Part shown: positions 3,526 to 53,663 of the stretch, one piece after another
Position numbering within the stretch: position 1 is the first letter of the stretch
Layout: every line of letters starts with the position of its first letter
NCBI GenBank assembly: GCA_964514595.1
Contig: CAZEQZ010000002.1
Location: 185,663 to 249,662 of the forward strand
Direction: 5' to 3'
Length of the DNA: 64,000 nucleotides
Source of the DNA: an uncultured Candidatus Saccharibacteria bacterium
Lineage (GTDB): Bacteria; Patescibacteriota; Dojkabacteria; SC72
Program-made: the position numbers and the translations under genes
Notes under the pieces: model-generated
Told to the model about the DNA's origin: nothing
The model's database searches: none
The model's input: only the letters and a program-made list of their open reading frames with translations

Positions 3526-4176
3526 TTAGATACTTATTATGAAAGCCTCTATCTTTCCATCCTTGCCTATAGATTCTATCTTCAAATCACTAAATTTTAC
3601 TAAATTAACAGAATAATCCTTTTCGTGGATAATCCAAAAACCAGTAGATATATGGTTTTCATTATAGAAATATTTAATCAATTTTCTAAACTCATGCAGT
3701 GAATCACCATCTATCCAATCATCACCTATCTTCCCCAGACCTAAATCCATTATATAGCCCACTCTTCCATACTTATTGCCTAAAGAATTTCTTAAAATAT
3801 TACTTAATATCTCGACGTGCTGCCTCTTACTATTCAAATCAATCGAATCAAATCCGTAGAGATTTATATCTAAGGCTTTTCTATAATCGTTCTCAAATTG
3901 ATTAATCATCTCCTCGGTTTCTCCACTACGTGCTAAAAGAAAACCAGCAGGATTTAATTCTTCGTCATCGTAAATAATACCACTGAAAACTGAAGTATCT
4001 CTTAAAATCTCTTCTAATTCTTCTTTAATAGCACCCCCATTCTCTTCCTTACCAAATGGAGGATTAGAGTATCTATCTACATAGTATTTAACAAATACTG
4101 AACTTGGGTCTACTTCTGAATTGTCACCTGTTGTAATTTCTTCTATTTCTCTATCCATACTTCCCTCCCATAGCAT
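3526..4176 (-). CDS. Hypothetical protein (about 216 aa); the ORF-track N-terminus (to 4305) overlaps rnpB and is rejected
   Basis: The ORF is open to 4305, but the first 43 codons lie inside the RNase P RNA gene. The first Met downstream of the RNA 3' end is at 4176 (alternatively 4158). It contains an NPPFG motif of unclear meaning. Confidence 0.4.
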   Translation of the reverse strand: MLWEGSMDREIEEITTGDNSEVDPSSVFVKYYVDRYSNPPFGKEENGGAIKEELEEILRDTSVFSGIIYDDEELNPAGFLLARSGETEEMINQFENDYRKALDINLYGFDSIDLNSKRQHVEILSNILRNSLGNKYGRVGYIMDLGLGKIGDDWIDGDSLHEFRKLIKYFYNENHISTGFWIIHEKDYSVNLVKFSDLKIESIGKDGKIEAFIISI

Positions 4177-4214
4177 AATAATATCAGTACTAAAGAAAGA
4201 TCTCAATATACCAA

Positions 4215-4512
4215 GAAAATACGCAAGTACACAATAAGCCGGATTCTGTATAACGATGATTATCTGTCTATGCGGTTTAACCTTGCTCCGGGTGGGGGTT
4301 ACCACGCAATACTGTATTACTACAGTACCCGGTAGTCTCTTACACTACCATTTCACCCTTACCTAATAAATTAGGCGGTATATCTTTCTGTTGCCCTTTT
4401 CTCCGAAAGATCACTCCCTCCCAACTCTCGTTGGCACCCTTTCGTGGAGTCCGGACTTTCCTCACTTACTTTAAAAAAGCAAGCGTAATCATCTAGTAGT
4501 ACTTGCGTGTTG
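4215..4512 (-). ncRNA. rnpB: RNase P RNA, bacterial type A (M1 RNA homologue), about 295 nt
   Basis: The minus-strand sequence contains GAGGAAAGTCCGGACTCCACGAAAGGGTGCCAAC (P4 strand), GGGCAACAGAAAGATATACCGCC, GGTAAGGGTGAAATGGTAGTGTAAGAGACTACC, CCCACCCGGAGCAAGG and ACAGAATCCGGCTTAT. These follow E. coli M1 RNA block by block. The P1 stem is formed by ACGCAAGTAC (4499-4508) pairing with GTACTTGCGT (4221-4230). Confidence 0.85.
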
Positions 4513-4520
4513 ATATTATA

Positions 4521-5426
4521 CTATTTTTTACGCTTTTTTTGAATCAATATGACCGGAACTACTATCAAGGCTATTACTGGAATGAATACAATCAACCATA
4601 TAATTCCACTCCCAACAAACTTTGCGAAACCAACTAAAGCCCTTATAGCATCCCTCAAGACACCCTCTGGTCTCCATTCATCCTCTACTAGATCTGCACC
4701 TACACTACTTTGAGATATATGCATATATATATACGAATATTTTGTTTGATTTCCTATGTTCTTTAATTCTGCTTCTACCCTCTCAATATTGTACCTAACC
4801 TCATTTAATTCTTTATAAATAGCTAATGTCTCTTCTACAGTTGTAGAATTTCCTAAAAGGGTTACAAACTGAGTTTCTACACTTTTATAATTACTTAATC
4901 TAGCTTCTAAATCTACTACCGTATCTGTCACATCACTCTCACTAATTGAAGAACTTAGAAATTCACCATCCAAATCTTTAAGTCTATTATATAACTCTTC
5001 AAATTTACTCTCTTCCACCTTTATTGTTAAACCAACACCCCTATCTTTCCCTTTTCCATAGTCATTTAGATTGATCACAGAGGCGTTAAATTCAGCCCTG
5101 ACAGCTGTTATCTCATCTAATGATTCATCTATATCATCTACAGCTATATTTATACTACCTGTTCTAATTATGCTTCTTGTTTCATCGGAATATTCATAAG
5201 AATAGCTTTCTTCCTTCATCATGACATCAGGCTCTATATATGCGCTATCCTCATACATCCCTGGGCCCCCATACCCCATTCCATAGCCTCCATAGTAGTC
5301 GTTTGTCGTATTCATATATCCATCTTTTACTTTGTATATCCAAAATCCAGCTAGAAAAACGAGAGGGATAAAGAAAATAATTGCCAAAGATATTAAAACA
5401 ATCTTTAGAGTTTTGTTATTTTTCAT
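4521..5426 (-). CDS. DUF4349-like membrane protein (N-terminal TM, coiled coil, C-terminal TM)
   Basis: The 301-aa protein has an N-terminal hydrophobic helix, a Gly/Tyr-rich low-complexity stretch, the DVTDTVVDLEARL...ELNEVRYNIERVEAEL coiled coil typical of DUF4349, and a C-terminal TM plus KKRKK tail. Confidence 0.5.
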   Translation of the reverse strand: MKNNKTLKIVLISLAIIFFIPLVFLAGFWIYKVKDGYMNTTNDYYGGYGMGYGGPGMYEDSAYIEPDVMMKEESYSYEYSDETRSIIRTGSINIAVDDIDESLDEITAVRAEFNASVINLNDYGKGKDRGVGLTIKVEESKFEELYNRLKDLDGEFLSSSISESDVTDTVVDLEARLSNYKSVETQFVTLLGNSTTVEETLAIYKELNEVRYNIERVEAELKNIGNQTKYSYIYMHISQSSVGADLVEDEWRPEGVLRDAIRALVGFAKFVGSGIIWLIVFIPVIALIVVPVILIQKKRKK

Positions 5427-52486: not shown

Positions 52487-53584
52487 TCAATATTCTTTTG
52501 AAAGCTTGTCCCATAATTCCTTTTCTCTCCTGTTTAACCTTGTTGGTATATCGACATTTATCCTAACATACTGATCTCCCCTTTCTCCCTCTCTATTAAA
52601 TACAGGACATCCCTTGTTTTTAAGTTTAAATATTGTCCCAGACTGTGTACCTTTAGGAATTTTTAATTTAACATCCCCTGTTATTGTTTCCACAGATATC
52701 GTTCCTCCTAAAACTGCAACGGGTACCGGGATATTTTCTTCTGAATAAATATCATTACCCCTCCTATCAAACTTCTCTGATGCTTCAACTTCTATTTCAA
52801 TATATAGATCTCCCACTGTACCTTGATTCCTTCCTGTATTCCCCCCACCTCTAAACCTAAGAACCATACCATCGTATGCACCTGCAGGGATTTTAATGGT
52901 TAATGTTTCTTCCTTACTTTTTACTCCTGTACCTTTACACTCCTTACACGGATTTTCTATAACCTTGCCTGTACCTTGACAATTGGAACATGTTGACATC
53001 ACTGCCATCTGCCCAAGAATTGTATTTCTAACCTGTCTCTGTTGACCTGTTCCATTACAGACAGGACATTCCTTTGTCTTACCATCATCACTACCAGTAC
53101 CTTCACATTTTTCACACCTATCTTCTCTCTTAATCTTTATCTTATACTCTCCCCCCTTCATTGCTTCATCAAAACTAACCCTAACCTTATACCTTATATC
53201 TGAGCCAACATCTTCCCTAGGACCTCTACCCTGTGTACCAAAATCAAAACCAAATCCACTGCCAAAATTACCTCCTCCAAAGAAGGTATTGAAGATATCA
53301 CCCATATCAAACGGAGTACCTTGAAAATCGTATCCATTTCCCGCAGTTCCGGGATTAAATCCTGCTGTACCAGCATGACCGTACTGATCGTATGCCTTTC
53401 TCTTTCCTTCATCCGAGAGAGTTTCGTATGCCTCCTGTATTTCTTTAAATTTCTCTTCTGCATCCGATTCCTTATTTACATCAGGATGATATTTTTTAAC
53501 AAGCTTTCTGTATGCTTTTTTAAGCTGATCACCGCTTGCATCTTTTTTAACACCTAATACTTCATAGTAGTCTCGTTTTTCCAT
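52487..53584 (-). CDS. dnaJ: Chaperone DnaJ (J domain, Gly/Phe region, four CxxCxGxG zinc-finger repeats, C-terminal domains)
   Basis: DYYEVLGV...HPD J-domain; [32 protein letters not shown]. Confidence 0.92.
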
Positions 53585-53663
53585 AACAGAATGATTTTAG
53601 CAAAGTATGTATATATTTGCTACCCATTTTATCTACAATCTTAAATCTGCTAATATCTATACT

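Follow-up and report, generated by a model that had tools for sequence, protein, structure and literature searches.

The region described here lies on the minus strand of a 64-kb stretch of chromosomal DNA (hereafter the window, about 35% G+C) and carries rnpB, which encodes the RNA component of RNase P, an enzyme responsible for trimming the precursors of tRNA. A minus-strand ribosomal-protein operon, encoding L14 ... SecY, Adk, IF1, S13, S11, S4, RpoA, L17, L13 and S9, is followed by a gene for a DUF4349 membrane protein, by rnpB, and then by two open reading frames (ORFs) without a Pfam family. The features of the locus are collected in Table 1, in which the helices of the RNA were assigned from the RF00010 model alignment and from direct pairing.

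Table 1. Features of the rnpB locus, in coordinates of the window; helices are named as in class A RNase P RNA
Feature	Position	Strand	Remarks
rnpB, RNase P RNA subunit, bacterial class A, reduced form	4221..4508	-	RF00010 match and P1 pairing
Conserved block GAGGAAAGTCCGGACTCC	4463-4446	-	
Conserved block AGGGTGCCAAC	4440-4430	-	
Conserved block GGGCAACAGAAAG	4396-4384	-	
Conserved block GGTAAGGGTGAAATGG	4363-4348	-	
Conserved block CACCCGGAGCAAGG	4294-4281	-	
Conserved block ACAGAATCCGGCTTAT	4249-4234	-	
P1	4508-4499 with 4230-4221	-	10 perfect bp, bulged U, then 2 more pairs
P2	4493-4486 with 4262-4255	-	Compensatory changes in 5 of 8 pairs
P3 hairpin, short	4485-4463	-	Compensatory changes in 6 of 9 pairs
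P4, 5' strand AAG-U-CCGG	4451..4458	-	Bulged U at 4455; within the GAGGAAAGUCCGG block
P4, 3' strand CCGGCUU	4236..4242	-	Within the ACAGAAUCCGGCUUA block; pseudoknot with the 5' strand
P5		-	CUCC with GGAG
P7		-	GGGUG with CACCC
Specificity domain, P7 5' strand through P14	4295..4439	-	Covariance-model alignment; joiners ACAGAAAG and GGGUGAAAU
P8			GAGA loop
P9			GUGA loop
P10/P11 and P13			Present
P12			Very short, 8 bp, UUUA loop
P14			GUAA loop
Vestigial P15, GGU-UAA-ACC	4274..4282	-	3 bp and triloop; replaces 43 model positions (L15, P16, P17)
Joiner GCAUAGACAGA	4263..4273	-	Leads from P15 directly to the P2 3' strand; P18 absent
Promoter-like sequence upstream of rnpB	4515..4543	-	TTCAAA (4543-4538), 17-nt spacer, TATAAT (4520-4515); 10 of 12 consensus matches
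DUF4349 membrane-protein gene	4521..5426	-	Pfam PF14257, E 1.2e-40
Spurious N-terminal extension of the downstream ORF	4159..4305	-	49 codons, 147 nt; 4221-4305 inside rnpB
Promoter-like sequence downstream of rnpB	4178..4206	-	TTGAGA-17-(TG)TATTAT; 10 of 12 consensus matches and TG extension; consensus match only
Ribosome-binding site GGGAGGG	4169-4163	-	5 nt upstream of ATG 4158
Downstream protein gene, 210 aa	3526..4158	-	Likely start ATG 4158; no Pfam match
ORF, 546 aa	1811..3451	-	No Pfam family
Y1 tyrosine transposase gene, 157 aa	10529..11002	+	PF01797, IS200/IS605 TnpA or REP-associated type

Genomic setting and promoter

The transcription start predicted from the promoter-like sequence upstream of the RNA falls at about 4508, where P1 begins. 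All 36 related loci examined (see below) have a T(A/G)GTATAAT box at a distance of 6-8 nt before P1, whichever gene lies upstream; since the box is kept even with a different upstream gene, rnpB has its own conserved promoter. After the RNA, no intrinsic terminator was found on the minus strand, and the short U-run that follows P1 is not conserved.

The stop codon of the DUF4349 gene abuts the -10 box of rnpB. By tblastn, a DUF4349 homologue was detected upstream of rnpB in 31 related loci, so that this gene is a conserved neighbour, and the gap between the two genes amounts to a few tens of bases in many loci and to about 600-750 nt in others (L019, L020, L023, L031, L037 and L038). Several relatives carry a small ORF between DUF4349 and rnpB. 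The one in L019 (4839..5123, 94 aa, beginning MMVKITYSKTFLKRYKKLKK) may encode a RelE/YafQ-type toxin, judging from its size and sequence. In L011, L020, L023, L031, L037 and L038, the 50 nt upstream of rnpB hold a conserved small-ORF 3' end (...catgagggaaa.cttctgtttata.gt.a), which abuts the rnpB -10 box.

A phage-borne origin of the gene was rejected, given that the pattern describing the P15-P18 deletion had no matches in a viral contig collection and that the context is a chromosomal ribosomal-protein operon. Within this operon, a Y1 tyrosine transposase gene is located between secY and adk, on the strand opposite to the otherwise co-directional genes, and a second Y1_Tnp gene occurs about 8 kb past the left end of the window on the same-species contig L046 (7928..8359). 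Elsewhere in the window, gene orientation switches at about 53584/53607, from minus up to dnaJ (52487..53584) to plus from a sortase gene at 53607, and at about 54 kb, the cumulative-skew minimum, the negative GC skew changes sign and becomes positive. The skew and the orientation switch at about 54 kb amount to a predicted replication-origin signature, yet no dnaA is adjacent.

The RNase P RNA and its relatives

When all 4227 Rfam families were scanned against the 64-kb window, RF00010 (RNaseP_bact_a) was the sole match. It runs from 4505 to 4220 on the minus strand with a score of 177.9 bits (E 8.8e-56) and spans model positions 1-367 without truncation, so that the curated gathering score of 100 is far exceeded over the full model. 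The initial annotation had proposed such a covariance-model search, together with a check of folding and covariation, after placing a class A RNase P RNA of about 295 nt at 4215..4512 and reading P4 and its neighbouring conserved blocks, in order, on the minus strand. A block search recovered all six blocks in that order, with one copy each and on the minus strand only. The proposed boundaries were essentially right, if a few bases generous: P1 closes the mature RNA at 4508..4221, giving a length of about 288 nt, which agrees with the earlier observation that the molecule is shorter than E. coli M1 RNA (377 nt). The structural check was favourable as well: helices P1 to P4 are all formed, the pseudoknot of P4 and its bulged U among them, and the relatives covary. 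The minimum free energy of the RNA is -88.6 kcal/mol (z = -4.03), a value that none of 200 shuffles equalled, and the minimum free energy fold alone recovers P1, P3, P4, P8, P13 and P14.

Assignment to class B (RF00011) was considered and rejected, class A being retained in the clan competition of cmscan. The hallmarks of class B are P5.1, P10.1 and P15.1 without P13/P14/P18, and the RNA in the window has P13 and P14; its J5/7 is only 6 nt long, or 8 nt if the first two bases of P7 are counted.

The core helices P1, P2, P3, P5 and P7-P11 all form in the window sequence, and the conserved strands of P4 pair as a long-range pseudoknot. With class A RNAs of RF00010, such as E. coli M1 and Thermotoga maritima P RNA, the molecule shares P1-P5, P7-P11, P12 and the class A-specific P13/P14, the P4 pseudoknot GAGGAAAGUCCGG...ACAGAAUCCGGCUUA with a bulged U, the conserved joiners J11/12 (ACAGAAA) and J12/13 (GGGUGAAA), and GNRA-type loops on P8, P9 and P14. 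It differs from them in its length of about 288 nt and in the absence of 43 model positions (L15/P16/P17) and a further 24 (P18); moreover, P15 amounts to a hairpin of 3 bp, both P3 and P12 are short, and P6 is impossible because P17 is absent. In the model alignment, the deletion of 43 positions leaves 0 nt between the two strands of P15, and the deletion of 24 positions, corresponding to P18, likewise leaves 0 nt. A 9-nt P15 remnant is what stays of the P15/L15/P16/P17/P6 module, and the docking of P18 into P8 has been lost. In E. coli M1, the region between the P15 strands holds the L15 internal loop, whose GGU pairs with the tRNA 3'-CCA, as well as P16 and P17.

Reduction of this kind is already on record. 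A Dojkabacteria RNase P RNA with near-complete absence of P15 has been reported for genome SRX1775579_bin_0 (S7 Fig of Lui, Nielsen, Arkin 2021, PLoS Comput Biol, PMC8172020), and in the same study 23 of 35 RNase P RNAs of the candidate phyla radiation were without the CCA-binding motif, while loss of P13, P14, P16, P17 or P18 was described as 'not unusual' (PMC8172020). On account of that study, the loss of L15/P16/P17/P6 and of P18 is regarded as a matter of variable family features and not of a strict requirement. The RNA in the window, an otherwise class A molecule in which P15 is almost entirely missing, belongs to this published Dojkabacteria type, and L021 (HGW-Dojkabacteria-1) has the same P15-P18 deletion. 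Compared with the published type, the RNA of the window's subclade is smaller, lacks a hairpin between P5 and P7, and has a minimal P12. Other reduced RNAs include the P18-less RNA of Chlorobium, the cyanobacterial and plastid RNAs without the L15 motif, the 276-nt class B RNA of Mycoplasma fermentans, and the archaeal types M and T, which show that natural RNase P RNAs can do without P12-P14, P16-P18 and the CCA-binding loop. These come from other lineages, in which other sets of helices have been lost, whereas in the window RNA the specificity domain is intact and the lost periphery is all in the catalytic domain.

Relatives were collected with the pattern GGAGCAAGG-N(20-45)-ACAGAANCCGGCTTA, which demands that P16/P17 and P18 be missing, in one genome per species across 185,579 species; as an exact-match pattern, it provides a lower bound on the spread of the reduced form. 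The scan returned 43 loci, about 38 of which share the junction GG-YNNNR-CC-GCAUAGAYAGAU. They carry the label Candidatus Dojkabacteria or candidate division WS6, with some automated MAG records reading 'Saccharibacteria' or 'Microgenomates'. All full-length relatives are matches to RF00010, with scores of 144-176 bits and lengths of 284-353 nt. Five of the 43 loci were set aside for their different architecture: L009 (Ruminococcaceae) and L032 (a truncated 'Thermococci' contig) do not have the reduced Dojkabacteria-type architecture, and L015 (Clostridia), L018 (Rokuibacteriota) and L041 (Fermentibacteraceae) score 226-270 bits against RF00010 and have different inserts. The matches in the last three lie at 112..451 in L015, 7191..7481 in L018 and 912..1361 in L041. 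The Rokuibacteriota RNA is only 291 nt long, so that class A RNAs have become compact in other phyla as well, through other deletions.

The structure of the window RNA was projected onto an alignment (A1) of 36 related genes and the window. Across the 36 genes, standard pairs occupy 96.8% of the cells, a share that drops to 35-46% once the 3' partners are slid over 1-3 columns, and changes on both sides are seen in 33 of 89 pairs, as against 1-7 after sliding; none of 500 shuffles matched the observed pairing or covariation score. Compensatory changes extend over P1, P2, P3, P7, P8, P9, P12, P13 and P14. By helix, the pairs concerned number 4 in P1, 5 in P2, 6 in P3, 4 in P7, 2 in P8, 2 in P9 and 5 in P14, with at least 1 each in P12 and P13. 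All 7 pairs of P4 are invariant in 36 of 36 genes, and P5 likewise never varies, which is the expectation for a universal core; the support for P4 is therefore one of conservation, not covariation. At the third pair of the P15 remnant, 28 relatives have U-A and 6 have C-G, and this switch argues for a real 3-bp hairpin and against a free GGU.

In 28 of the 36 Dojkabacteria-type RNAs, a hairpin of ~20 nt is inserted between P5 and P7 (A1 columns about 68-92). Its carriers include L005 (3633-3960, minus strand), L004 and L021, and it is absent from the window (4445-4440) and from the rest of a hairpin-less subclade (L019, L045, L014, L036, L033, L016 and L007). The stem covaries strongly, as in GUUCCAA/UUGGAAU, GCUGUGA/UCACAGU and GUCUAGA/UCUAGAU. 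The loop AACAUAU is conserved, and immediately 5' of the hairpin stands an invariant AUGU that complements the ACAU of the loop, so that a small AUGU-ACAU pseudoknot is possible. The hairpin sits where class B RNAs have P5.1 and may compensate for the lost P15-P18 periphery.

Start of the downstream reading frame

Downstream of rnpB, a minus-strand ORF of 259 aa with a GTG start (3526..4305) begins inside P14/P11 of the RNA. The initial annotation had correctly pointed out that its start is read from within the RNA, as borne out by GTG 4305 and by public gene calls, but its figure of 129 nt for the overlap needs revision. That distance separates GTG 4305 from the in-frame ATG 4176, whereas the ORF and the RNA overlap by 85 nt (4305..4221) and the whole extension measures 147 nt. 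The 259-aa product is present in public gene calls for same-species contigs (L046, 54..833; L048, 1281..2060), and the ORF artefact is thus a real one. It is an artefact of longest-ORF choice. The true start is likely ATG 4158, behind the GGGAGGG ribosome-binding site, with a predicted N-terminus of MDREIEEITTGDN.

Among the related loci, L019 has the single homologue of the 210-aa protein, a weak one (24% identity, E 2e-6) with a shorter N-terminus. This homologue begins at an ATG after the RNA, and the frame that matches ATG 4176 is closed by a TAG (ATG CTA TAG). The comparison excludes read-through of the RNA and argues against ATG 4176, although it does not prove 4158. For annotation purposes, rnpB should be added at 4221..4508 (minus strand), where standard Rfam annotation would find it, and the downstream protein should be cut back from 259 to 210 aa, since the longer version, which is being passed on through public calls, has a chimeric N-terminus that is a translation of RNase P RNA. 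The 546-aa ORF farther downstream has a 55%-identical homologue in one related locus only (L034).

Function and alternative explanations

Taken as a whole, the sequence evidence confirms the region as a genuine, ordinary housekeeping rnpB in the reduced form already described for its lineage. It is very probably a functional rnpB of an uncultured member of the Patescibacteria (candidate phyla radiation), most likely of the Dojkabacteria (WS6), with its own promoter and with the overlapping 259-aa ORF artefactual. The idea that AT-rich DNA resembles RNase P motifs here merely by chance has nothing in its favour except the short length of the RNA, and its probability is practically nil, being refuted by the E value of 8.8e-56 and by covariation far above that of the controls. 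The reduction itself might alternatively be read as decay, with a non-functional rnpB left as a relic and 5' processing carried out by a protein-only RNase P or by a second rnpB elsewhere; the absence of both the elements for substrate 3'-end binding and those for domain docking would fit this reading. However, about 38 species-level genomes share this architecture, their RNAs show compensatory changes while the catalytic core never varies, and the promoter box is conserved as well. The kept architecture, the compensatory changes and the promoter box point to purifying selection instead of decay, and a relic is highly unlikely. In addition, complete genomes of the candidate phyla radiation have been reported in which a reduced form is the sole RNase P RNA (PMC8172020).

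Dual use of the overlapping DNA, in which the 259-aa ORF would be a real protein whose N-terminus is encoded inside the RNA gene, draws on the open frame from GTG 4305 and on the automatic callers that report the product on same-species contigs. Against it, a tblastn search with the 259-aa sequence gave 10 relatives whose match starts at residue 1 and breaks off near residue 30 (range about 24-38), with the RNA-encoded part covered and nothing beyond it; moreover, variation in this stretch tracks the base-pairing of the RNA. The strong GGGAGGG only 5 nt before ATG 4158 and the L019 homologue, which starts downstream of the RNA with its upstream frame shut by a TAG, also speak against such a protein, and dual use is accordingly rated as extremely unlikely.

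Both the kind of gene and its reduced architecture are already known, and the copy in the window is another member of the published type. It adds one more species to the bacteria of the candidate phyla radiation that do without the CCA-binding P15-P17 module and P18. Such RNAs would be useful as natural minimal constructs for RNase P enzymology, and nothing known is changed by the present example.

With regard to function, rnpB would be transcribed from its own promoter, right after the ribosomal-protein operon and the DUF4349 gene, and the transcript of roughly 288 nt is predicted to fold as a class A RNase P RNA with a catalytic core of P1-P5, including the P4 pseudoknot. By analogy with established class A RNase P, the active site would be formed by P4 and the adjacent joiners, the complete specificity domain (P7-P14) would bind the T-loop of the pre-tRNA, and the 5' leader would be bound by the protein RnpA, whose gene must lie in another part of the genome. 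Together, RNA and RnpA are expected to cleave the 5' leaders of pre-tRNAs, both catalysis and partner being predicted from family membership. No RnpA RNR motif was found in the six frames of the 64-kb window, and rnpA is usually located elsewhere. The substrate's 3' end would probably be bound without the GGU-CCA pairing of L15, with more reliance on the specificity domain and the protein. As the L15 GGU motif and the stabilising L18-P8 contact are both missing, activity of the RNA alone may be weak.

The 64-kb window, the 36 related loci and about 20 kb of flanking same-species sequence (L046, L049) yielded no tRNA genes. The tRNA-free stretch comprises the window, these flanks of about 20 kb and about 250 kb of syntenic Dojkabacteria loci, which is long for a genome of about 0.7 Mb but may simply reflect shared synteny. 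A related metagenome contig (L051) carries a tRNA-Glu(CUC) gene that encodes CCA. On this single case (n=1), the sole tRNA found, CCA-less tRNA genes are not supported as the reason for the loss of L15, which would thus not stem simply from CCA-less precursors. A speculative and rather unlikely extension is that the subclade of the window represents a near-minimal class A ribozyme still handling CCA-bearing pre-tRNAs, in which the P15 remnant might open to offer the 3' end of the tRNA a minimal docking site that can be switched, or in which 3'-end recognition might have passed entirely to the protein. In the P15 remnant, GGU pairs with ACC just as L15 does with A73-C74-C75 of tRNA.
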